From sequence record OR791690.1: 55,571 nucleotides of DNA. The stretch is one strand, 5' to 3'. Shown here one piece after another: positions 666 through 55,571 of the stretch. The first letter of the stretch is position 1; the number at the start of each line of letters is the position of its first letter. Under the pieces are notes generated by a model. It saw only the letters and a list, made by a program, of their open reading frames with translations, made no database searches and was not told where the DNA came from. This DNA comes from Escherichia phage vB_EcoM_JL1. Position numbers and translations under genes: made by a program.

Positions 666-2780
666 TTATTGACAGAAGTAGTAAGCGTGTTCGCTCATCA
701 GAAGCTCTTCAGTTACGATGTTCTCATGATACATCTTGATGCCACCAAGTTGCTTAGACAGATTCTCGAATTGATTGTTGGTTACAAAGATTTCAACATA
801 TGCTGCACGAATAACTTCCATCATACGTGGAGCATCTGCCAAACAGCAACGGAAACAATCATGGATTGAAGTGAAGCCACGAAGACCAGCTTCTTTAGCT
901 TTAACTGCAACAGTACGAGCAACAAGTGCATCAATGCCCTGAATGTAGTTAACAACGAAAGTACGCTTGAATTCTTCTTTAGTTGGATTGGATTCACGAA
1001 TGGTCCAAGGCTTATTCTCCTGAATCTGACCAAAGATAACACGAGTTTGGGAGTCAACACGAATGCTGAATGCCTCACAGATTTCACGAGATGGGAAGCA
1101 AGGCTTCATTACAACCTGACCATCAGTGTGACGATATGTGATGTACTCTTTACCAAGTTCAACACAACGGTTGTATGCAGCATCAGCAGCTTTCTCAATG
1201 AACATGTTAATCTTAGCACCCAATGCGTTATGGATTGCTTCCACACACAGTTCAGCAAATGCCTCAGCTTTCTCCATAGGAATCTGGAGTGCTTCTGTCA
1301 TGTAGCTGATGAAGTCAGAAGAACCAGTCAATGCAGCTTTACCACCACCGTATTGGATAGCCATGTACGGAGTTTTGATAAACTTACGACCAGCTTTCGG
1401 ATTCAAGAATTCATCCATGATTTCAGGAGATGGTTTCATTGAAGACTTGTCCAGCAGCTTCAACAGTTCACGAAGACTCAACTGGTATGGGTCAGATGCT
1501 TTAGTCTCAGAATCAACCAGACCTGTTGCACGAGCCATTTCCATATTACCAGCAATGAATGCCAGATATTGAGTACCAGAACATTTAGCATCTAAGCCAA
1601 AGCCTACACGAGAATCACATTCACCTGTAGTCTCGAACTTGAACCAATCCAGAGCCAGACGAACATAAGTGAATGGCTTGGAAGGACGTTCAGCTTTAGG
1701 CATGTTCATCATGCGAGCAAGTGAACCAGCTGGATTCTGAGCAACATAAGTTAAACGCTTAGCACTGCACCATTCACCACCAGAAATATCTTCCAGCTCT
1801 GCCATAAACATGTTGTATGCAATGGTAGTAGAACCATCTTCGTTAAACTTCTTAACGATGTTCTCAACATTGTGAGAATACAAGCAACGAGCAAAGTCAG
1901 ATGATTGTGGGTTAGGACCAGCACATGCTACATGATACAGACGACCACGGTTATCAGCAAAGTAGTCAGAATACAGTGTGTCCTGATTCATCATTGCTAC
2001 AGCATTGTTCCAAACATGGAGTTCAGTCTGGATTGCTTCTGGCATCTGCAAGCCACCATAGGTACGTTGTTCAAGCATGGACTGAATGATGCGAACCATC
2101 TCAGTCTCCACATGGTACTCAGTATCTTGCAGGAATTCGATTGCAGCTTTCAGAGTTTTGGATGGCTTAACTTTGCCACCTTTAACGAAAGGCTTGCGAC
2201 GAGATTCAGATGTAACACGCTCAGTGAATGGCACTGCGGTATCTTTGGTTGTAACCAGCTCAACCCATGTGTCAGTTTGTTGGAACGACTTATCTTCGTT
2301 CATGGTGATGAAGCCAAAGTGCTTAGCCAGGCCAATGAGGTTGATAGCTGGGTCAACATAGTGCATTGCTTTCAAATCATTGTTGTAACGGTTGGCATCA
2401 GCAATTGAAGCAGAAGCCAGCTCAACCATTGCAATTGCAGGAACAACATCATCACGAGTGAATGAGGTCATCATCTTAAAGATTGCAAGAGCAGCAATAG
2501 CACAGGTCTGAGGTTGCATGTAGTTCTGTTTCTCTTTGGCACGATATACCAGAGCAGTGATAGCAGGGACAACGGATTTGATAGTTTGAGTTGAGATAGT
2601 TGCCATTTTGCGAGTCTCCAATTTAGTTTCGGTTTTAGTTTCGGATTGTGTAGCGGAGGTGATTTCATCTACCATCTGGTTGCAACGGTCCATCGTATCG
2701 AGCACGTCTTTCCAACCGTGGCCTTCTTCTTTTAAGCGAGCACCATCAGCAGCCAGTGTACGATATTCTTCATTAGTCAT
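666..2780 (-). CDS. T7-like single-subunit DNA-dependent RNA polymerase (704 aa, compact)
   Basis: motifs DAKCSGTQYLAF (T7 DGSCSGIQHFSA), KTPYMAIQYGGG, SIHDCF (T7 HDSFGT); ATG at 2780 with GGAGA RBS. Confidence 0.85.
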   Translation of the reverse strand: MTNEEYRTLAADGARLKEEGHGWKDVLDTMDRCNQMVDEITSATQSETKTETKLETRKMATISTQTIKSVVPAITALVYRAKEKQNYMQPQTCAIAALAIFKMMTSFTRDDVVPAIAMVELASASIADANRYNNDLKAMHYVDPAINLIGLAKHFGFITMNEDKSFQQTDTWVELVTTKDTAVPFTERVTSESRRKPFVKGGKVKPSKTLKAAIEFLQDTEYHVETEMVRIIQSMLEQRTYGGLQMPEAIQTELHVWNNAVAMMNQDTLYSDYFADNRGRLYHVACAGPNPQSSDFARCLYSHNVENIVKKFNEDGSTTIAYNMFMAELEDISGGEWCSAKRLTYVAQNPAGSLARMMNMPKAERPSKPFTYVRLALDWFKFETTGECDSRVGFGLDAKCSGTQYLAFIAGNMEMARATGLVDSETKASDPYQLSLRELLKLLDKSSMKPSPEIMDEFLNPKAGRKFIKTPYMAIQYGGGKAALTGSSDFISYMTEALQIPMEKAEAFAELCVEAIHNALGAKINMFIEKAADAAYNRCVELGKEYITYRHTDGQVVMKPCFPSREICEAFSIRVDSQTRVIFGQIQENKPWTIRESNPTKEEFKRTFVVNYIQGIDALVARTVAVKAKEAGLRGFTSIHDCFRCCLADAPRMMEVIRAAYVEIFVTNNQFENLSKQLGGIKMYHENIVTEELLMSEHAYYFCQ

Positions 2781-2842
2781 GATAAAGTCTCCAATTGATT
2801 ATGATTTAACTGAAACGGATTAGACTTGCGTAGCCTATTCAT

Positions 2843-2862
2843 AATCACAACCAACTAATGGT
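2843..2862 (-). promoter_or_regulatory. Phage-promoter-like conserved motif (copy P2), 63 nt upstream of RNAP start
   Basis: plus aatcacaaccaactaatggt. Confidence 0.4.
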
Positions 2863-2995
2863 GAGGTGAGCACACTACAACAGCGTACTCTGATTGCCTT
2901 TGACCTTGACTTATAAGCGAAGCGCCTAACTTGGTGTTGTTTGAAAGCCGATAGGCTGTAGGAAAAAGTTGGAGTAGGGACCGTATTTAAGTCCG

Positions 2996-3424
2996 ATAGG
3001 ACGTTGGGCTTCTGCTCCCCGGCCCCCTAAAAATAAAATTAATATTGCCACAATTCGAGTCTCGTTAATATCGAACAAATTCGAGTCTCCAATATCGTAA
3101 CAATTTTAGTCTCATTAATTCTGTAGCAATATTGAAAATAAAAAAAAAATTATAAAAAAATTATTTCATAGCCAGACAACTGTTCGAACAAATTTCGGCG
3201 AGATAACTTCTCCGAAGGAGATACAGCTGACCGACCATGAACGAATTACTATCCAGGTACAGTTGACCGACCATGTACCATTTGGTTTTGAACTTTACGC
3301 ATTCCTAATATTACTCTTAATATTGTAGCAATATTGGGAATAAATAAATATTTAATTTACTTGTCTTATTCTAGCTCAAAGAGAAACGACGCTAACGCAT
3401 CGAATCTCTTCTCGCATATAATCG
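2996..3424 (-). promoter_or_regulatory. AT-rich non-coding control region between nrdB and RNAP gene, with direct repeats
   Basis: no ORF; three ~25-bp direct repeats (GAGACTCGAATTTGTTCGATATT-like, minus strand), two copies of CATGGTCGGTCARCTGTAYCT, long A/T tract 3131..3170, repeated CAATATTGCTACA. Confidence 0.6.
3149..3179 (-). promoter_or_regulatory. Candidate sigma70-type promoter upstream of RNAP gene
   Basis: minus strand TTGTCT then about 18-19 nt then TATAAT; spacer slightly long. Confidence 0.3.
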
Positions 3425-4525
3425 TTAAAGCTCAAATCCGCCCAGAGCATTGGTGTCCACTTCGGAATCAATCTGCCCGACAAGGTACGAACTAATCTCC
3501 GTTTCTTGTGGAGCAACTTGTACAGCATCCGAATTCAACCATGCGTTAATCCAAGGAATCGGGTTAGTAGCACCTTTGAATGGAGCATCTAATCCAACTG
3601 CTTGCATACGAATATTCGTGATATATTCCACATATCCGCATAGAATTTGCTTGTTTAAGCCAATCATTGAGCCATCTTTGAACAAATAATCAGCCCAATC
3701 TTTCTCTTGTTGGGCCACATTTTCGAACATGAGTTGGCATTCTTGGCGGCATTCTTTAGCAATTTCGGCCATTTCTGGGTCATCAACACCACTTGCAAGA
3801 AGGTTCAGCATGTGTTGAGTTCCAGTCAAATGGAGTGCTTCATCACGAGCAATTAAGCGAATAATCTTGGCATTTCCTTCCATCAACTTGCGTTCAGCGA
3901 AGGCAAATGAACAAGCAAAACTGACATAAAAGCGGATTGCTTCTAGTGCATTAATGGACATGAGGCATAAATATAGCTTCTTCTTAAGCTCACGAATAGA
4001 AACCTCATCTTCATGCAGATGCCACATGGAAGTTAGGTGTTGAAGTTCGTCATAATATTGGGAGATGCCGATTGCACGCATTTTAATATGCTCATTCTCC
4101 ACAATTTCATCGAAAATGACACTCGGGTCTGTAACAATATTACGAATAATATGCGTGTAAGAACGGGAGTGAATTGTCTCTGAGAAGGACCAAGTTTCAA
4201 TCCAAGTTTCCAGCTCAGGAATGCTCACAATTGGCAGCAAAACTGTGGTTGGTCCACGTCCCTGAATGGAGTCAAGCAAGATTTGATAGCGCAAATTGCT
4301 GGTGAAGATGTGCTTCTCACATTCAGGCAGACCAGCATAGTCAATTCGGTCCTGGCTAACATCAACCTCTTCAGGTCGCCAAAAGAAAGATAACTGCTTT
4401 TCGATTAACTTCTCGAAGATGCTATACTTCTGTTGGTCATATCGAGCAACGTTAACGTTCTGACCAAAGAACATTGGCTCTAGTAGTTGGTTATTCTTGG
4501 TTTGTGAAAAGGTAGTGTAAGCCAT
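3425..4525 (-). CDS. nrdB: Ribonucleotide reductase class Ia small subunit (NrdB), host-like
   Basis: near-colinear with E. coli NrdB as I recall it ([11 protein letters not shown]..., [32 protein letters not shown]); no NrdA in the window. Confidence 0.9.
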
Positions 4526-14296: not shown

Positions 14297-14369
14297 TGCA
14301 ATATACCTATTGAAATTAATACATATTCAACTAATGTAAAAGGAAAGCTGGGGATTTCTCCCCAACTCC

Positions 14370-34165: not shown

Positions 34166-34438
34166 TTAGTCGACCTGCAACATAGCAAGTCGGAAGTCAT
34201 ATCCAACTAATGCTTCGGACAGCTCTTCAAATGAAGACGTTGCCGAAATTAAAGTTTGGATGTTTTTGAATGTCTCATCATTGAATGCTTGAGACTGTGT
34301 GTCGGACGAATAGAATACTTTGTCCTTAATCTTTTCAAGGAACGCCATTACAGCGTCCTTTGCGAGAACTTCGGAATCGGTAGCAAACATGTGGTGCTCT
34401 GATTCCTGTACATCAAAAATAGAATATACAGTTTTCAT
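34166..34438 (-). CDS. Hypothetical acidic protein
   Basis: 90 aa; start overlaps polymerase stop. Confidence 0.45.
   Translation of the reverse strand: MKTVYSIFDVQESEHHMFATDSEVLAKDAVMAFLEKIKDKVFYSSDTQSQAFNDETFKNIQTLISATSSFEELSEALVGYDFRLAMLQVD
34196..34215 (-). promoter_or_regulatory. Phage-promoter-like conserved motif (copy P4, inside upstream ORF)
   Basis: plus gtcatatccaactaatgctt, ~61 nt upstream of 34135. Confidence 0.3.
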
Positions 34439-36372
34439 TAGTGAATCTCTGCGTAGTTATCACCGAACTGCACATCACATGCACAATCACGGTTAAGTTT
34501 AAGTTCTTTGTTGGTTCGGTCCATTGCCTCATTAAGCAAGTCCGTCCACAAATCACGGAAGCCTTTCTTAACTTGGAGAATCAATTCATCATGGAATTGC
34601 CCGGACAGAAGTGGGTCACAGCCCCAACGCTCATTACAAATTGCAATGATGTTGTTACACCAAATATCAAACACATATGCACCAGTACCCTGACACAATG
34701 TGGAGAAGCGGTCTTTCTCTGTGCGCAATGAATACCAGAATTTGTTTACTGGATTCTGTTGCCACATCTGACCATCAACTGTAATAACTTTGGTGTTTGC
34801 AGCAATCTCTTTAATGGACCAGTTCAAGTCCCAATATGCTTTATGCAGTCGTGCAGCAGTAGTCTGGTCACAGCCAGCAGAGCGGGCTACAGTTGGTATG
34901 CCAGCGCCATACTGACAAGCATAGTTTGTGGTCTTAAACATTGGACGTTGTTTACACTTCTTAATTCCGTCCTTGTGGTCCTGAGATTCTTGTTCAGTAA
35001 TAAATCCACCAATTACGCCGATTGCAAGGTGAGCATCATAGTCTGGTGCCAACTGCTTCTTAACGTATTCAGGGTCATACATCCACTGGAAGTGGTGCTT
35101 ACAACGGTCTTCCAGTGAGCACAAGTCAGAGCCTAACTGTTCATAGTCTTCACGCCACGCTTCCAGCATTGAACGCAGTTCTTCACCGCCAAATACACGA
35201 ATAGAAGGGAGGTTAACAAGTTCGCGATGTTTAAGGCGTAAAGTATTGGTAAGGCCACCACATCGTGCAGTAAGGTATCCGTCTTCATCGACGTCGCGAA
35301 GAAAACCGTTAACAACAGACAGACGGTGTTTATACACGCCCATCCCAATAAGATGTTGAATACCAGAGTCGGGGTTTCTTTCCGCCAGCTTATGCAAGCT
35401 CGGACATATTTCAGGATTGCCATCTTCATCCTTCACAGTGATTTGTGGAATCTGGCGGGTTTCACCTGTTTCCTTATTACGGTCAAACTTAAAGGTTTCT
35501 GGTTCCCAACCCAGGCTGAACAACCAATCTTTGATTTGAACATGTGAACCAGCATTAGGCTTCTTATAACCTTTAAGAACTTTGATAGCCAGGTCTGGGT
35601 CTTTCCAGTCCAAACCGTTCGCATCACAAATAGCCTTCCACTTAATTCCAGTGGAAGACAGTTGCCCGTTCATCTTGTGGCATTTAGCTGGACGGGTTTT
35701 GATAACATATTCCGGAACACGCGGCATTGATGCTTCCAACGCGTCCGTCTTCTCTTTAATCATTGGCTCCAGCTTGGCCTTAAATGCCAATGCCTTCTCA
35801 ATGTTCAGCTTCCAGCGAGTACGTTGTTGAATAACTTGCTGACGAGCTTTTGTCATCAGGTATTCAACGAAGCGTTTAACTTCGCTAGGAGATTTATAAA
35901 TCTTCAAGAGTTGGATATATTGCTGTTCCCACAGCTTCAACTGAATCTTGCAGTCTTCCATCACACGATGGTTGTACTCTTCTTGAGTTTGATTTTCCCA
36001 ATCTTCAATGACTGGTTTTGGCACACCAAACTCTTCGCCGTAACCTTCCAGGCCGTGCTTAACACGACGAGGTTGCAGATACCAACTGATAAACAAAGTA
36101 TCAATCAGTGTACATTTTGAAACGTCGTAACCAAGGAACCTCAGTGCTTCAAAGTCAAAGGTTGCGCCGTTGTGCATGATTAATGTTGGGCCTGTATCCA
36201 GAAATGCCTGGATAGATTTTCTGTCGGTCCACTCTATCACAGTTTCTTCACGAGTCAGAACATCAATATACCCGATGTTGTGAAGACGCGGTGCAGCTTG
36301 CTTACGCATTTGCTCCAACAGGCCAGTTGTTTCAATGTCACTGGCATACATATTTTCCCAAGGATACAACAC
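34438..36372 (-). CDS. DNA polymerase, family A (T7-like)
   Basis: exo motif DIETTGL; KTTNYACQYGAG; QFHDE. Confidence 0.85.
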   Translation of the reverse strand: MLYPWENMYASDIETTGLLEQMRKQAAPRLHNIGYIDVLTREETVIEWTDRKSIQAFLDTGPTLIMHNGATFDFEALRFLGYDVSKCTLIDTLFISWYLQPRRVKHGLEGYGEEFGVPKPVIEDWENQTQEEYNHRVMEDCKIQLKLWEQQYIQLLKIYKSPSEVKRFVEYLMTKARQQVIQQRTRWKLNIEKALAFKAKLEPMIKEKTDALEASMPRVPEYVIKTRPAKCHKMNGQLSSTGIKWKAICDANGLDWKDPDLAIKVLKGYKKPNAGSHVQIKDWLFSLGWEPETFKFDRNKETGETRQIPQITVKDEDGNPEICPSLHKLAERNPDSGIQHLIGMGVYKHRLSVVNGFLRDVDEDGYLTARCGGLTNTLRLKHRELVNLPSIRVFGGEELRSMLEAWREDYEQLGSDLCSLEDRCKHHFQWMYDPEYVKKQLAPDYDAHLAIGVIGGFITEQESQDHKDGIKKCKQRPMFKTTNYACQYGAGIPTVARSAGCDQTTAARLHKAYWDLNWSIKEIAANTKVITVDGQMWQQNPVNKFWYSLRTEKDRFSTLCQGTGAYVFDIWCNNIIAICNERWGCDPLLSGQFHDELILQVKKGFRDLWTDLLNEAMDRTNKELKLNRDCACDVQFGDNYAEIH

Positions 36373-36437: not shown

Positions 36438-38204
36438 TTATTGGTGTGGACCGTTCTTCTTAGTAAGCTGAACAATCTCTTTGGTTTCGAACAGCGAGTC
36501 ATCCCAAGAACGTTGAATGATTCGACCAGATTCGGTGTCGTAATATGTCTTGAAGCCTTCTGTTTTACCACTCTTACGAGCCTTAATGGAACGAATGATA
36601 GAACAGTTTGGGTCAACTGCCTGACTATTACGCTCAAAGCCGAACATGCCATGGGAATATTTAGCAGCAGCACGGGAGCCAGTAAAGTCTGACTTCTTAA
36701 TACGTCCACCATCCTCATGAGGTCGTTGACCTTTTGCCACAGGGTTAAGGTGCGACAGGATGTTTACATGGAACTGGTATTGGTCTGCCAGCTTAGTAAT
36801 ATCTGCATACAGCTTACCTAAGAAGTCGTTCTTCTCTGAGGCAGAAATCCCTTCCGATAAGTAGGTTAAGTTATCAAGGACAAACATATCAATGTCTGGT
36901 CCAATCTGACGAAGAATCGTCTTTAACCCATCCCAGGTTTCATAAGGGTCTTCTCCAGCTTGCTTGCGGTCCCAAATCTCCATGTTACGAAGCATCTTCG
37001 CAGCAGTTTGACGGAACTTAGCTTCATCATATCGAGGGTCTTCACGAGTAAACGCAGGTTCCCAATATGGCAAGTTGTCATTAAGGCCAGCCATTCGGCG
37101 CAGTGTTTCTGTAGGAGTTTCCTCCATGTATGCAGTAAACACTCCCCAATCATGCTTGGTAATGTTGTGATGCACAATCTGACGGGACAGCGTAGTTTTA
37201 CCACCACCTTCTGCACCACCGATTGTAATAACTTCGGCTCGACGTTGACCAAACATTAAGTCGGTTAACTTGGGCCAAGGATAGTCCACACCCTGTTCAA
37301 CTTCGTCATCAAGCTCTTCCATAAGAAGTTCTTTGTTGACAAGTGCTGTAGGCAGAGGACGAGCAGCACGGAACACAACAGCAGATTGAGTAGCTTTGAG
37401 CAAGCCACGCTTCAAACAATCGTTGGCATCGTTAGCTGGAAGTGTTGCAATCATTGCACCAGGCAATAATCGACACGCTTCTTTTGCAGCTTTACGTCCA
37501 GGTTCGTCATCATCAAATACGATAACAATCTGCTCCCAACGTTGCTTAATTTCTTCTGCAACTGGTGACAAACATTTGTGTACGGAATCACTCCCGTCAC
37601 TCAAACTAATTACAGCAAAATCCAAATCTTCATATGCACCACCACGGTTCATAGTTTTGAGGATTTGACGCAATGCGATACAGTCTTCTTCACCTTCTGT
37701 GATGAACAGTGTCTTACCGCCAATTGCTTTTGCAGCCATCCAGTTGTAAGGGTCGTTACCCTGGGTGTCGCCAACTGACCACATAACTTTCTTGTTCAGA
37801 AGTTTAATCTTCCATCGAACAAGTTTACCATTTTTGGTGTAGCCATGTGCCAGAGCATTTGGAGTCTTCCCATCATACTCTGAATACAGAAGTCGAACAC
37901 CAGCAGCTTTCCAAAATTCTGGCTCAATGCTGCGATGGGTTAAATCAAACGGAGGACAAGCAGTGATTTCATCAACTTCTTCCTGAATTTCTTCTGGAGT
38001 TTTGACTTTAATCTCTGGAATGTTCTCCGGATTATTGCCATAAGGATTTGGTACTAGAACGCCACATGCAAAACAGTAACCAGAAAAATTCTTATTACCA
38101 GCTTCATCGACATTCAACCAAACCTGTAAAGACTTGCCAGATGTGGATTTACAGTCTGGTACATCGTGCTTAATCTTAGCCACACATTGCTTAACGTTCA
38201 TCAT
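36438..38204 (-). CDS. Primase-helicase (T7 gp4-like)
   Basis: N-terminal Cys4 zinc finger, TOPRIM EGEEDCIAL, Walker A GGAEGGGKTT. Confidence 0.8.
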   Translation of the reverse strand: MMNVKQCVAKIKHDVPDCKSTSGKSLQVWLNVDEAGNKNFSGYCFACGVLVPNPYGNNPENIPEIKVKTPEEIQEEVDEITACPPFDLTHRSIEPEFWKAAGVRLLYSEYDGKTPNALAHGYTKNGKLVRWKIKLLNKKVMWSVGDTQGNDPYNWMAAKAIGGKTLFITEGEEDCIALRQILKTMNRGGAYEDLDFAVISLSDGSDSVHKCLSPVAEEIKQRWEQIVIVFDDDEPGRKAAKEACRLLPGAMIATLPANDANDCLKRGLLKATQSAVVFRAARPLPTALVNKELLMEELDDEVEQGVDYPWPKLTDLMFGQRRAEVITIGGAEGGGKTTLSRQIVHHNITKHDWGVFTAYMEETPTETLRRMAGLNDNLPYWEPAFTREDPRYDEAKFRQTAAKMLRNMEIWDRKQAGEDPYETWDGLKTILRQIGPDIDMFVLDNLTYLSEGISASEKNDFLGKLYADITKLADQYQFHVNILSHLNPVAKGQRPHEDGGRIKKSDFTGSRAAAKYSHGMFGFERNSQAVDPNCSIIRSIKARKSGKTEGFKTYYDTESGRIIQRSWDDSLFETKEIVQLTKKNGPHQ

Positions 38205-42272: not shown

Positions 42273-42295
42273 CTTTCCACATCCAACTAATGTTT
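42273..42295 (-). promoter_or_regulatory. Phage-promoter-like conserved motif (copy P5)
   Basis: plus ctttccacatccaactaatgttt. Confidence 0.4.
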
Positions 42296-44241: not shown

Positions 44242-44260
44242 CTTCAATTCCAACTAATGT
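44242..44260 (-). promoter_or_regulatory. Phage-promoter-like conserved motif (copy P7)
   Basis: plus cttcaattccaactaatgt. Confidence 0.4.
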
Positions 44261-44271
44261 AATTTTGTGCT

Positions 44272-47850: not shown

Positions 47851-48222
47851 TTAGAACGGAATGTCGTCGTCGAAGTCTTTCGGTTCGTTCGGGTTATAGT
47901 TGCTCTGCTGTTGCTGGGTAGGTGCTTGCTGTTGTGCAGAAGGTTGCTGGCGTTGCTGTTGCTGTTGAGCGGCAGCTTGAGGTTGAGCTTTAGCTTTAGC
48001 TTTCTCTTCACGCTTACGCATCATTTCATCAACCTGTTCCTGAGTCATGATGGTTAATGCAAGTGAGGTAAACTCATTACCATTTGCTTGCTTGTTCCAG
48101 CCAGACACCCAATACCAGATTCCGTCAACGTTAATACGCCCACGAATGTCGGGATGTTTTGGGTCTTTCTTGAAGCCGTTAGGACCGATGATGCCAGTGT
48201 TTACATCTGAATATTGTTCCAT
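47851..48222 (-). CDS. Small protein with SSB-like linker and C-terminal tip (...NEPKDFDDDIPF)
   Basis: C-terminal 25 aa closely resemble the E. coli SSB tail (Q-rich linker, DFDDDIPF); N-terminal ~70 aa unrelated to the SSB OB fold. Confidence 0.6.
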   Translation of the reverse strand: MEQYSDVNTGIIGPNGFKKDPKHPDIRGRINVDGIWYWVSGWNKQANGNEFTSLALTIMTQEQVDEMMRKREEKAKAKAQPQAAAQQQQQRQQPSAQQQAPTQQQQSNYNPNEPKDFDDDIPF

Positions 48223-48295
48223 GATTAAGATTCTCTTAAGTTAATTACAGTTTAAGTTTCAGTGACATTGCTAACCACGGAATAGCTTTGTCCCT

Positions 48296-48315
48296 CTTCA
48301 AATCCAACTAATGTT
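48296..48315 (-). promoter_or_regulatory. Phage-promoter-like conserved motif (copy P10)
   Basis: plus cttcaaatccaactaatgtt; shares ~30 nt with P11. Confidence 0.45.
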
Positions 48316-48354
48316 AGATTAATCAGGAACACTCAATGAATGCTCCTTGTTAAT

Positions 48355-48666
48355 TTAACGTTGCTTCTTCGCCCACTCTATTGCGGCCATTATTGTATCG
48401 CCATGACAGCGTGCTGGGGCACACCAACAAACTAAATCTTTGCCATCTAATGCCAGCAAATCATCTATTGTTACTTCACCAGATTTAATTTGTTTCCACA
48501 AATACTTGCGATACTCTTCGCACACGTAGTCTCTCTGACTTTCTTTAAACATTTTAAAAGGATTGTGGAATTTCTTGTTTCCAGCGATTCCCTTCATATC
48601 TCGACCGATATATACTGCGTTGTTGTGAACACCTTTAACTTTCGAATAGTTCAAAACTCTTGCCAT
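48355..48666 (-). CDS. DUF4326-like protein
   Basis: C-terminal DLVCWCAPARCHGD motif; ATG at 48666 with GGAG RBS (track start 48696). Confidence 0.5.
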   Translation of the reverse strand: MARVLNYSKVKGVHNNAVYIGRDMKGIAGNKKFHNPFKMFKESQRDYVCEEYRKYLWKQIKSGEVTIDDLLALDGKDLVCWCAPARCHGDTIMAAIEWAKKQR

Positions 48667-48685
48667 CTTTATTCTCCAATTATTA

Positions 48686-48704
48686 CTCACAATCAACTAA
48701 TGTT
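48686..48704 (-). promoter_or_regulatory. Phage-promoter-like conserved motif (copy P11), ~20 nt upstream of gene start
   Basis: plus ctcacaatcaactaatgtt. Confidence 0.45.
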
Positions 48705-48744
48705 AGATTAATCATGGACACCTACAGGAGATGCCCATTGTTAA

Positions 48745-52520: not shown

Positions 52521-52992
52521 AATATTTGTTGCTCAAAATCGGGGCGGCAAACGATATTAAATTCGATGCTTTGTCCGACTTCTTCTCTTCTTTCGAATTC
52601 TGATTGAAAGAAAGAAGCATGTCCAAAAGTTCCAATATTACAAAGTTATCTCCCGGCTTGTGGGTGGGCCTTTATAATAGGAGATGGAGCAATATTGTTG
52701 CAATTGAACATGCTTTAGTTGAAGAACAGTTTCGAATGGTAATCCTACTTCACACATGGTTGTTGGAACTTTGTCCGGCCAAAGACAGGGAGTTCAATGA
52801 TTGCCACATCATTACAACACTGTATGTTTAGTTGACATGCTGAAATGTTTCTAGAATGATTTCAACATGACATGCGGAATACTTCTCCGTATTCTGTTAC
52901 TTCACATCCAACTAATGTTACAGGTGGCTACAATATTGAAGCCAGCTCTAAGATTAATTGAAACAAGAAAAGGGAGCCGAAGCTCCCAAATA

Positions 52993-53193
52993 TCAGAACG
53001 GTATCTCTGTATCGAAATAACCAGAATTGTGCAAATATGCATGCAGTAATACATGCGACTCTTGTTTATATTCTGCTAACAACTCTAAGAAGTCTTTAGT
53101 CTCCTCCACTGTAGGACGAGATAAGTTGCTCATGTCACAGGTGTGATGAGGGTTGAAACAGTTTTCGATTTGATTGATTTGCATGGTATTCAT
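52993..53193 (-). CDS. Copy of 417..617 (small protein ending DTEIPF)
   Basis: sequence identity with 417..617. Confidence 0.5.
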   Translation of the reverse strand: MNTMQINQIENCFNPHHTCDMSNLSRPTVEETKDFLELLAEYKQESHVLLHAYLHNSGYFDTEIPF

Positions 53194-53241
53194 TATAAGT
53201 CTCCAAGTTTGTGGTCATCCTTGACCAATTAGTGTTACTGA

Positions 53242-55356
53242 TTATTGACAGAAGTAGTAAGCGTGTTCGCTCATCAGAAGCTCTTCAGTTACGATGTTCT
53301 CATGATACATCTTGATGCCACCAAGTTGCTTAGACAGATTCTCGAATTGATTGTTGGTTACAAAGATTTCAACATATGCTGCACGAATAACTTCCATCAT
53401 ACGTGGAGCATCTGCCAAACAGCAACGGAAACAATCATGGATTGAAGTGAAGCCACGAAGACCAGCTTCTTTAGCTTTAACTGCAACAGTACGAGCAACA
53501 AGTGCATCAATGCCCTGAATGTAGTTAACAACGAAAGTACGCTTGAATTCTTCTTTAGTTGGATTGGATTCACGAATGGTCCAAGGCTTATTCTCCTGAA
53601 TCTGACCAAAGATAACACGAGTTTGGGAGTCAACACGAATGCTGAATGCCTCACAGATTTCACGAGATGGGAAGCAAGGCTTCATTACAACCTGACCATC
53701 AGTGTGACGATATGTGATGTACTCTTTACCAAGTTCAACACAACGGTTGTATGCAGCATCAGCAGCTTTCTCAATGAACATGTTAATCTTAGCACCCAAT
53801 GCGTTATGGATTGCTTCCACACACAGTTCAGCAAATGCCTCAGCTTTCTCCATAGGAATCTGGAGTGCTTCTGTCATGTAGCTGATGAAGTCAGAAGAAC
53901 CAGTCAATGCAGCTTTACCACCACCGTATTGGATAGCCATGTACGGAGTTTTGATAAACTTACGACCAGCTTTCGGATTCAAGAATTCATCCATGATTTC
54001 AGGAGATGGTTTCATTGAAGACTTGTCCAGCAGCTTCAACAGTTCACGAAGACTCAACTGGTATGGGTCAGATGCTTTAGTCTCAGAATCAACCAGACCT
54101 GTTGCACGAGCCATTTCCATATTACCAGCAATGAATGCCAGATATTGAGTACCAGAACATTTAGCATCTAAGCCAAAGCCTACACGAGAATCACATTCAC
54201 CTGTAGTCTCGAACTTGAACCAATCCAGAGCCAGACGAACATAAGTGAATGGCTTGGAAGGACGTTCAGCTTTAGGCATGTTCATCATGCGAGCAAGTGA
54301 ACCAGCTGGATTCTGAGCAACATAAGTTAAACGCTTAGCACTGCACCATTCACCACCAGAAATATCTTCCAGCTCTGCCATAAACATGTTGTATGCAATG
54401 GTAGTAGAACCATCTTCGTTAAACTTCTTAACGATGTTCTCAACATTGTGAGAATACAAGCAACGAGCAAAGTCAGATGATTGTGGGTTAGGACCAGCAC
54501 ATGCTACATGATACAGACGACCACGGTTATCAGCAAAGTAGTCAGAATACAGTGTGTCCTGATTCATCATTGCTACAGCATTGTTCCAAACATGGAGTTC
54601 AGTCTGGATTGCTTCTGGCATCTGCAAGCCACCATAGGTACGTTGTTCAAGCATGGACTGAATGATGCGAACCATCTCAGTCTCCACATGGTACTCAGTA
54701 TCTTGCAGGAATTCGATTGCAGCTTTCAGAGTTTTGGATGGCTTAACTTTGCCACCTTTAACGAAAGGCTTGCGACGAGATTCAGATGTAACACGCTCAG
54801 TGAATGGCACTGCGGTATCTTTGGTTGTAACCAGCTCAACCCATGTGTCAGTTTGTTGGAACGACTTATCTTCGTTCATGGTGATGAAGCCAAAGTGCTT
54901 AGCCAGGCCAATGAGGTTGATAGCTGGGTCAACATAGTGCATTGCTTTCAAATCATTGTTGTAACGGTTGGCATCAGCAATTGAAGCAGAAGCCAGCTCA
55001 ACCATTGCAATTGCAGGAACAACATCATCACGAGTGAATGAGGTCATCATCTTAAAGATTGCAAGAGCAGCAATAGCACAGGTCTGAGGTTGCATGTAGT
55101 TCTGTTTCTCTTTGGCACGATATACCAGAGCAGTGATAGCAGGGACAACGGATTTGATAGTTTGAGTTGAGATAGTTGCCATTTTGCGAGTCTCCAATTT
55201 AGTTTCGGTTTTAGTTTCGGATTGTGTAGCGGAGGTGATTTCATCTACCATCTGGTTGCAACGGTCCATCGTATCGAGCACGTCTTTCCAACCGTGGCCT
55301 TCTTCTTTTAAGCGAGCACCATCAGCAGCCAGTGTACGATATTCTTCATTAGTCAT
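53242..55356 (-). CDS. Copy of T7-like single-subunit RNA polymerase gene
   Basis: identical to 666..2780. Confidence 0.85.
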   Translation of the reverse strand: MTNEEYRTLAADGARLKEEGHGWKDVLDTMDRCNQMVDEITSATQSETKTETKLETRKMATISTQTIKSVVPAITALVYRAKEKQNYMQPQTCAIAALAIFKMMTSFTRDDVVPAIAMVELASASIADANRYNNDLKAMHYVDPAINLIGLAKHFGFITMNEDKSFQQTDTWVELVTTKDTAVPFTERVTSESRRKPFVKGGKVKPSKTLKAAIEFLQDTEYHVETEMVRIIQSMLEQRTYGGLQMPEAIQTELHVWNNAVAMMNQDTLYSDYFADNRGRLYHVACAGPNPQSSDFARCLYSHNVENIVKKFNEDGSTTIAYNMFMAELEDISGGEWCSAKRLTYVAQNPAGSLARMMNMPKAERPSKPFTYVRLALDWFKFETTGECDSRVGFGLDAKCSGTQYLAFIAGNMEMARATGLVDSETKASDPYQLSLRELLKLLDKSSMKPSPEIMDEFLNPKAGRKFIKTPYMAIQYGGGKAALTGSSDFISYMTEALQIPMEKAEAFAELCVEAIHNALGAKINMFIEKAADAAYNRCVELGKEYITYRHTDGQVVMKPCFPSREICEAFSIRVDSQTRVIFGQIQENKPWTIRESNPTKEEFKRTFVVNYIQGIDALVARTVAVKAKEAGLRGFTSIHDCFRCCLADAPRMMEVIRAAYVEIFVTNNQFENLSKQLGGIKMYHENIVTEELLMSEHAYYFCQ

Positions 55357-55571
55357 GATAAAGTCTCCAATTGATTATGATTTAACTGAAACGGATTAGA
55401 CTTGCGTAGCCTATTCATAATCACAACCAACTAATGGTGAGGTGAGCACACTACAACAGCGTACTCTGATTGCCTTTGACCTTGACTTATAAGCGAAGCG
55501 CCTAACTTGGTGTTGTTTGAAAGCCGATAGGCTGTAGGAAAAAGTTGGAGTAGGGACCGTATTTAAGTCCG

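Follow-up and report, generated by a model that had tools for sequence, protein, structure and literature searches.

A small phage protein with a non-OB β domain and a host-matched SSB-type tip, probably a phage single-stranded DNA-binding protein

The minus-strand gene at 47851..48222 of the window (the whole 55,571-nt stretch of coliphage DNA analysed) encodes a 123-aa protein in which a conserved β domain, which is not an OB fold, is joined through a disordered linker to an acidic tip with the same sequence as in the host SSB. We put the probability at roughly 60 % that the gene encodes a genuine non-OB phage SSB, whose host-matched tip would recruit SSB partners to phage single-stranded DNA (ssDNA). 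The domain-linker-tip architecture resembles that of bacterial SSBs, is found family-wide, and argues for this reading. As far as we found, it is unreported that the "SSB" label of these proteins stems from tail similarity alone, that their fold is non-OB, and that the family is this large; the label itself is already known in databases.

The SSB-type tail and its match to the host

The ORF was confirmed as a complete CDS of 123 aa plus stop, with the ATG at 48222 and the stop codon at 47851-47853; its full translation is MEQYSDVNTGIIGPNGFKKDPKHPDIRGRINVDGIWYWVSGWNKQANGNEFTSLALTIMTQEQVDEMMRKREEKAKAKAQPQAAAQQQQQRQQPSAQQQAPTQQQQSNYNPNEPKDFDDDIPF and its C-terminal end is ...QQQSNYNPNEPKDFDDDIPF-stop. 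The protein is homologous to ST32 gp19, phiEcoM-GJ1 gp15, and SA91KD_19, and its residues 1-90 matched the HMM of PHROG 7364 ("single strand DNA binding protein") with E=5.8e-42 and 145 bits; the name of this PHROG is only an annotation. In relatives, the gene bears the annotation "single-stranded DNA-binding protein", to which the ST32 record adds "No experimental evidence", and the ST32 paper lists the gene only among replication genes (PMC6266442). Along the minus strand, the protein consists of the conserved β domain at residues 1-60 (48043..48222), the presumed ssDNA-binding module; a long α-helix (QEQVDEMMRKREEKAKAKA...) at residues 61-88 (47959..48042); a disordered Gln/Pro/Ala-rich linker at residues 89-115 (47878..47958); and the acidic tip DFDDDIPF at residues 116-123 (47854..47877).

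The original prediction held that the protein ends in the E. coli SSB tail and proposed an alignment to E. coli SSB as a check. HMMER alignments to PDB chains bear this out: the last eight residues, DFDDDIPF, are identical in E. coli SSB (1eqq_A) and Klebsiella SSB (7f2n_A), and NEP stands before them in both. The BLOSUM62 local alignment to E. coli SSB covers residues 79-123 only; the reference sequence used here was checked by its strong BLASTP matches to 89 genomic SSBs (E ≤ 1e-10, with a coverage filter) and, for residues 131-178, also against the PDB alignment. DFDDDIPF runs straight into the stop codon, and the free C-terminal Phe is present. In E. coli SSB, this free Phe forms part of the docking determinant, and the partners of the C-terminus include the χ subunit of Pol III, PriA, RecQ, ExoI, RecJ, RecG, RecO, Ung, and DnaG. 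The motif [DE][DE][ILVM]PF-stop occurs once in the six frames of the 55.6-kb window and is kept in relatives; hence, the resemblance of the tail is not due to chance.

Gln, Pro, and Ala make up 73 % of residues 79-115, in agreement with the Gln/Pro/Ala-rich tail that had been predicted. It had further been claimed that the C-terminus copies both the linker and the tip of E. coli SSB, which is correct for the tip, identical at 8 of 8 positions, but not for the linker, which is Gln-rich with 0 Gly, compared with 29 % Gly in the E. coli SSB linker. Similarity to the host ssb at the DNA level is confined to the final 33 nt (85-88 % identity, E 0.5-6), and such a match does not support the idea that the 3' end of the host ssb was recently captured as DNA. 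Compared with bacterial SSBs (E. coli Ssb; PF00436, TIGR00621), the phage protein has the same succession of domain, disordered linker, and acidic tip, with the last eight residues in common, but its domain is a non-OB one of ~58 aa instead of ~112 aa, its linker is Gln-rich instead of Gly-rich, and its DNA homology is limited to the tip. When the 3' end of the gene was compared with E. coli assemblies, 619 of the 678 places lay on plasmids, as short stretches with 95-99 % identity, which presumably represent the tips of ssb genes carried on plasmids.

The tip co-varies with the host SSB, in a contrast that rests on one host genus, Acinetobacter. Members infecting enterobacteria and Vibrio carry DFDDDIPF, whereas the members from Acinetobacter phages end in EPADLDDDLPF or PPADLDDDLPF, and ...PADLDDDLPF is likewise the C-terminus of the SSBs encoded on Acinetobacter chromosomes. 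When one genome per species was scanned for D[LF]DDDLPF-stop, at least 120 loci were obtained; among the matches listed, 52 of the 80 titled loci came from Acinetobacter and 6 from other Moraxellaceae, and canonical OB-fold SSBs accounted for 89 of 120 ORFs. A host-matched tip argues that the tip contacts proteins that also read the host SSB, and its co-variation supports the SSB reading. A tip that reproduces the host's own and changes with the host genus would also be seen if the protein were an SSB-tail decoy, a reading that we regard as unlikely. Such a decoy would be a non-DNA-binding scaffold or oligomerisation module showing several host-type tips and soaking up host SSB-interacting proteins, by which repair nucleases, helicases, restart factors, or SSB-reading defence components would be kept off host or phage DNA. 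The folded domain, which is tiny, non-OB, and net-neutral, would suit this role, as would the place of the gene among small host-takeover-type genes in the source phage (PMC6266442).

Fold and conserved face of the N-terminal domain

The original prediction that the N-terminal ~70 aa do not form an SSB OB fold was upheld by HMM searches, hhalign, and AF2 alike. PF00436 (SSB) gave no Pfam match to the 123-aa protein at E ≤ 10 and none to any of 141 relatives scanned singly. TIGR00621 reached 22.7 bits against a cutoff of 53.95 and covered residues 40-123 only, and the NCBIfam SSB models and the PDB SSB sequences were matched through the tail only. When the 141-sequence domain alignment was compared by hhalign with a canonical OB alignment of 65 sequences, consisting of E. 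coli SSB and the SSBs recovered from the genome scan for D[LF]DDDLPF-stop, the probability was 0.2 %. Aligned locally to the E. coli OB domain, residues 1-78 scored 24, which is below the shuffled mean of 26.3 ± 4.8.

With the 141-sequence alignment, AF2 predicted residues 10-70 confidently (pLDDT 92-97); the single-sequence run, with a pLDDT of 58, was uninformative. The model contains four strands at residues 10-14, 26-32, 35-46, and 49-58, followed by a helix at residues 61-88, along which the pLDDT drops from 92 to 54, and by disorder past residue 92 (pLDDT <50 at residues 92-119). The topology is a plain four-strand meander with tight turns. The model is not an OB fold, since both the fifth strand and the helix between strands 3 and 4 that are expected of an OB fold are absent, and the fold prediction proposed at the outset thus yields no complete divergent OB fold. 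Foldseek against the PDB with this model returned nothing significant (best E = 0.28; MoSub1 and T5 PC4 in the noise) and no OB fold among the structural neighbours. An ordinary SSB, its N-terminal domain being a canonical OB fold after strong divergence or truncation, is a very improbable reading: the database labels and a sub-significant, one-hairpin match (E=0.025) to the OB-fold Shiga toxin B subunit speak for it, but it failed all of the OB tests run, namely Pfam, TIGR00621, hhalign, local alignment, AF2, and Foldseek.

The Shiga toxin 2 B subunit was the sole PDB sequence match of the domain profile (VKVDGKEYWTSRW against rvnvdGveYwvSgW), spanning family residues ~29-45 (window 48088-48138, minus strand); the likeness is limited to one hairpin within a different topology, and we regard it as coincidence. 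Matches to Phage_RBD_prop in 53 of the 141 members (best E=0.003) were all sub-threshold and were judged to be a spurious β-hairpin likeness.

The weak structural neighbours of the model are PC4, the T5 PC4 homologue, MoSub1, Pur-alpha, and Whirly, all of which are β4-α ssDNA binders, in line with the SSB reading. Compared with the PC4-like binders (human PC4, MoSub1, the T5 PC4 homologue 4bg7, YdbC/DUF2128, Pur-alpha, and Whirly), the phage protein appears similar in topology and in the occurrence of single and tandem forms, but significant similarity is reached neither in structure nor in sequence. The β-β-β-β-α arrangement of PC4/Whirly/PUR is seen in the model of the phage protein; however, its α-helix at residues 61-88 is an insertion found only in the Chaseviridae members of the family alignment, which weakens the PC4-like reading. 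Judged from the model, the domain appears to have a fold without a solved relative, and "PC4-like" is a lead and not an assignment. The structural matches in BFVD were family members, mostly named "uncharacterized protein".

A recurrent, sub-threshold similarity of the core links the domain to DUF736 (PF05284), which is known from plasmids, ICEs, and phages. The similarity lies at profile positions 25-71 and was found in 8 of the 141 members, with a best match of 19.1 bits (E=1e-3); no member reaches the gathering score of 22.1 bits, the plasmid homologue scores 16 bits, and the window protein gives no match. The DUF736 model differs in its 99 positions with extra N- and C-terminal segments. 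The label "DUF736 domain-containing protein" has been given by PGAP to the tandem plasmid homologue, and a DUF736 label by JGI to the member P0104. At this level, below the threshold, the domain family appears to be related to DUF736 and is not formally a member of it; no characterisation of DUF736 function was found in the literature.

Seven residues, G10, N15, P24, G28, G34, W38, and W42, are invariant in the family, and Y4, N8, K18, N31, S40, K44, F51, and S53 are near-invariant. In strand 3, W38, S40, W42, and K44 alternate with the hydrophobic Y37, V39, and A/G41, and in strand 4, F51, S53, and S/A55 alternate with hydrophobic positions 52, 54, and 56. If the turn at 46-49 pairs K44 with F51, one face of the hairpin would be formed by Trp, Ser, Lys, and Phe and the other would be hydrophobic, contributing to the core or to a dimer interface; the former would be a typical surface for base stacking and phosphate contact. 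The invariant Trp residues and the alternating Lys and Ser on strand 3, typical of base-stacking surfaces, argue for the SSB reading. Together with the ssDNA-binding structural neighbours, this pattern points to nucleic-acid binding and speaks against a decoy, for which a 58-aa domain strongly conserved over more than 6,000 clusters would also be needless.

Family, genomic positions and proposed role

We searched the family profile against 50 %-identity representatives from 1.84 billion proteins and found 6,424 representative clusters at E ≤ 1e-3 and 2,302 at E ≤ 1e-10; in a 90 %-identity database, 2,728 proteins were matched by the domain profile. tblastn with residues 1-78 found 137 phage records, the carriers being Chaseviridae of Escherichia, Yersinia, Erwinia, Pantoea, Pectobacterium, and Proteus, the Vibrio podophages VP2/phiVC8, siphophages of Acinetobacter, Klebsiella, Salmonella, and Providencia, and Burkholderia phages. 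A typical member has 80-130 aa with a core domain of ~58 aa, and the family consensus is YDNTNRGALFKNDRKEKDTHPDYKGSINVEGVEYWVSAWxKEGxxGKFxSLSV. The family is absent from Pfam, and the literature on DUF736, PC4-like and SSB proteins, SSB-tail mimics, phiEcoM-GJ1, phiVC8, and DpoZ yielded no characterisation of any member.

The tail is a general property of the family: in 147 representatives at 50 % identity, the median length of linker plus tip is 36 aa, and an acidic tip with a terminal [PA][FYW] is present in 127 (~86 %), DIPF being the commonest ending. In 9 further representatives, the tip motif stands just before a short extension. Six members show a recurrent extension of this kind (IPFAPEFR, LPFAPEFR, IPFSAEFR, and IPFAPEGRG), which could reflect read-through, an assembly artefact, or a sub-family with another binding mode. 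A tandem two-domain form accounts for 16 of the 147 (~11 %); VP2p29 (159 aa), which ends in NEPPMDFDDDIPF, is one such protein. These tandem members parallel the type I/type II arrangement of PC4-like proteins (PMC7549692), a likeness that adds to the support which the structural neighbours give to the SSB reading. Tandem members with EDEDIPF and EDDEIPF tips also occur on megaplasmids of Burkholderiaceae (Caballeronia and Paraburkholderia); hence, the family is not restricted to phages. The megaplasmid genes, at 3770-4267 of locus L139 and 2770-3270 of locus L140, adjoin hypothetical and VWA-domain genes.

In VP2, Bhz20, K21lambda1, Bm1, and PMBT28, the gene adjoins that of DNA polymerase I/DpoZ, with helicase and primase in the same cluster. 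In a lambdoid podovirus and in metagenomic contigs carrying P0107, Erf (PF04404) and a YqaJ exonuclease (PF09588) precede the gene, and in the P0141 contigs, a DUF3799 exonuclease and a 285-aa protein do so. Phage ssb genes classically lie in one of these two settings, beside polymerase/helicase/primase or beside Erf/exonuclease. The source phage has genes for a family A DNA polymerase (34438-36372), a T7-like primase-helicase (36438-38204), an exonuclease, a ligase, and a single-subunit RNA polymerase. No other SSB was found in the source window or ST32 by a PHROG scan of ten other ORFs, by Pfam on further ORFs, or in the ST32 annotation, and the idea of a second, canonical SSB hidden in the source genome was dropped; likewise, no other SSB is annotated or detectable in VP2 or Bhz20. 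In three independent phage lineages, each with its own replisome, no candidate SSB besides this gene was found. Its presence in the SSB slot of unrelated phages and its standing as the sole SSB candidate in phages that encode a replisome both argue for the SSB reading. A decoy would have no reason to lie between polymerase, helicase, and primase or after Erf and exonuclease in unrelated phages, and the replisome-encoding carriers would be left without an SSB of their own; we consider a pure decoy less likely than a genuine phage SSB.

The tight linkage to polymerase/helicase or Erf/exonuclease genes could also point to an adaptor, in which the β domain would bind the phage polymerase, primase-helicase, recombinase, or the host SSB, and would either equip its partner with a host tip or bridge it to SSB-coated DNA. 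Compatibility effects between helicase-SSB and DpoZ variants, described in a preprint (bioRxiv 10.1101/2025.10.22.683976), would fit such a protein. Nevertheless, an adaptor seems doubtful to us. The neighbours differ by lineage (family A polymerase, T7-like primase-helicase, Erf, or DUF3799 exonuclease), but the invariant residues are the same, a constancy that a universal ligand such as ssDNA fits better than a lineage-specific protein; moreover, no replication gene adjoins the gene in the source phage. We hold it similarly improbable that the whole family is non-DNA-binding and comprises phage and plasmid SSB-tail decoys or adaptors, that is, multimerising β scaffolds whose host-matched tips would redirect the host SSB interactome. 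In that case, the name "SSB" would have reached the database entries as an artefact of their similar tails, and the family would capture repair, restart, and possibly defence factors during infection.

Many of the carriers outside Chaseviridae (VP2, Bhz20, K21lambda1, Bm1, and PMBT28) are 2-aminoadenine (Z-genome) phages, in which the gene adjoins a DpoZ-type polymerase and PurZ lies directly after it or a few genes off; Z-genome replication modules may have a family member as their standard SSB. The gene order in PMBT28 is helicase, polymerase, family member (annotated "DNA-binding protein"), and PurZ. When the helicase-dpoZ-ssb block of PMBT28 was combined with purZ/mazZ/datZ in E. coli, dZ incorporation rose from ~40 % to ~50 % (PMC12944874). 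Judging by the gene order, the "ssb" of this block is very probably the family member; the block was assayed as a whole, and the raised incorporation lends the SSB reading indirect support.

For a phage SSB of this kind, we propose that the ~58-aa four-stranded β domain would coat phage ssDNA as a dimer or higher oligomer, in which the ssDNA would be contacted by the face of W38, S40, W42, K44, F51, and S53 together with the basic K18 and R27/R29. The tandem forms suggest that two repeats may constitute one functional unit, and the Chaseviridae-only helix of the model, possibly an oligomerisation element, may aid this assembly. The disordered Gln/Pro/Ala linker would present DFDDDIPF, and the tip would dock the host readers of the SSB C-terminus at phage replication or recombination intermediates; possibly, it would also dock the T7-like polymerase or primase-helicase of the phage, as the tail of T7 gp2.5 does. 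The acidic C-terminal tail of T7 gp2.5 ends in Phe and docks the phage polymerase and helicase. Similar to gp2.5, the protein described here belongs to a phage with a T7-like replisome (primase-helicase, family A polymerase, and single-subunit RNA polymerase); in contrast, gp2.5 is a 232-aa OB-fold protein with a tail of its own, whereas the present protein is non-OB and carries the tip of the host, and no PHROG or sequence link connects the two.

Should the domain bind ssDNA, these proteins would form a structurally new class of SSB, smaller than any known so far and extremely common in phages, with more than 6,000 clusters and with occurrence in Chaseviridae and in most of the sampled Z-genome siphophages and podophages. 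Such a class would have been overlooked because these proteins owe their "SSB" label to tail similarity alone. In that case, the linker-tip module of bacterial SSBs would be portable: it would have become attached to an unrelated DNA-binding domain while its tip stayed host-matched, and this would testify directly, on evolutionary grounds, to a dependence of phages on the host SSB interactome. Were DNA binding absent, the protein would instead be a new type of host-takeover decoy. As the compatibility between SSAPs and SSBs probably runs through the SSB tail, the mini-SSBs are candidate tools for recombineering and host portability. They could also support a reconstituted Z-DNA replication, the PMBT28 homologue having already been co-expressed with its nature unrecognised.

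Promoter and phage genome

The source phage is a Chaseviridae/Carltongylesvirus coliphage of the phiEcoM-GJ1/ST32/Bp7 type, with up to 94 % DNA identity to these relatives. A possible Shine-Dalgarno sequence, AAGAGA (48232..48237, minus strand), can be read 9 nt upstream of the ATG, and 80 nt upstream of the ATG, at 48302..48316 (minus strand), the phage-type promoter motif of the phiEcoM-GJ1 class, TAACATTAGTTGGAT, is present without a mismatch. The upstream region of SA91KD is 97 % identical, and its annotated phiEcoM-GJ1-type promoter is at the same position. With up to three mismatches, the motif has 14 copies in the window against 1.84 expected, 13 of the 14 being on the coding strand; examples on the minus strand are 330-344, 14325-14339, 34201-34215, 42281-42295, 44248-44262, 48302-48316, and 48691-48705. 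These promoters are presumably read by the phage RNA polymerase, and the possession of its own phage-type promoter suggests that the gene is probably read by the single-subunit enzyme of the phage. The original prediction spoke of a small early protein; small it is, with 123 aa, but "early" becomes uncertain given this promoter.

A hairpin (GGAGCA-loop-TGTTCC; 48315..48347, minus strand) occupies the place where SA91KD has an annotated rho-independent terminator and, by homology to that annotation, may terminate the upstream transcription unit. The gene directly upstream (48355-48696, minus strand) encodes a DUF4326 protein (PF14216, E=7e-22); PHROGs group it with domains that occur in fusions with NrdA-like and DNA-repair proteins, and DUF1768 is the label of one relative.

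The window comprises one genome of 52,576 bp and an exact overlap of 2,995 bp, positions 1-2995 being the same as 52577-55571 with 0 mismatches. The gene of the single-subunit RNA polymerase (PF00940) is present twice, at 666-2780 and at 53242-55356. The identical ends could be a terminal repeat or result from a wrapped circular assembly. Among the related records, PP952070.1, "Staphylococcus phage Pel53", whose host is given as Staphylococcus hyicus, has 86 % DNA identity to the coliphage region and carries a gene with the E. coli-type SSB tip, and its host assignment looks doubtful.
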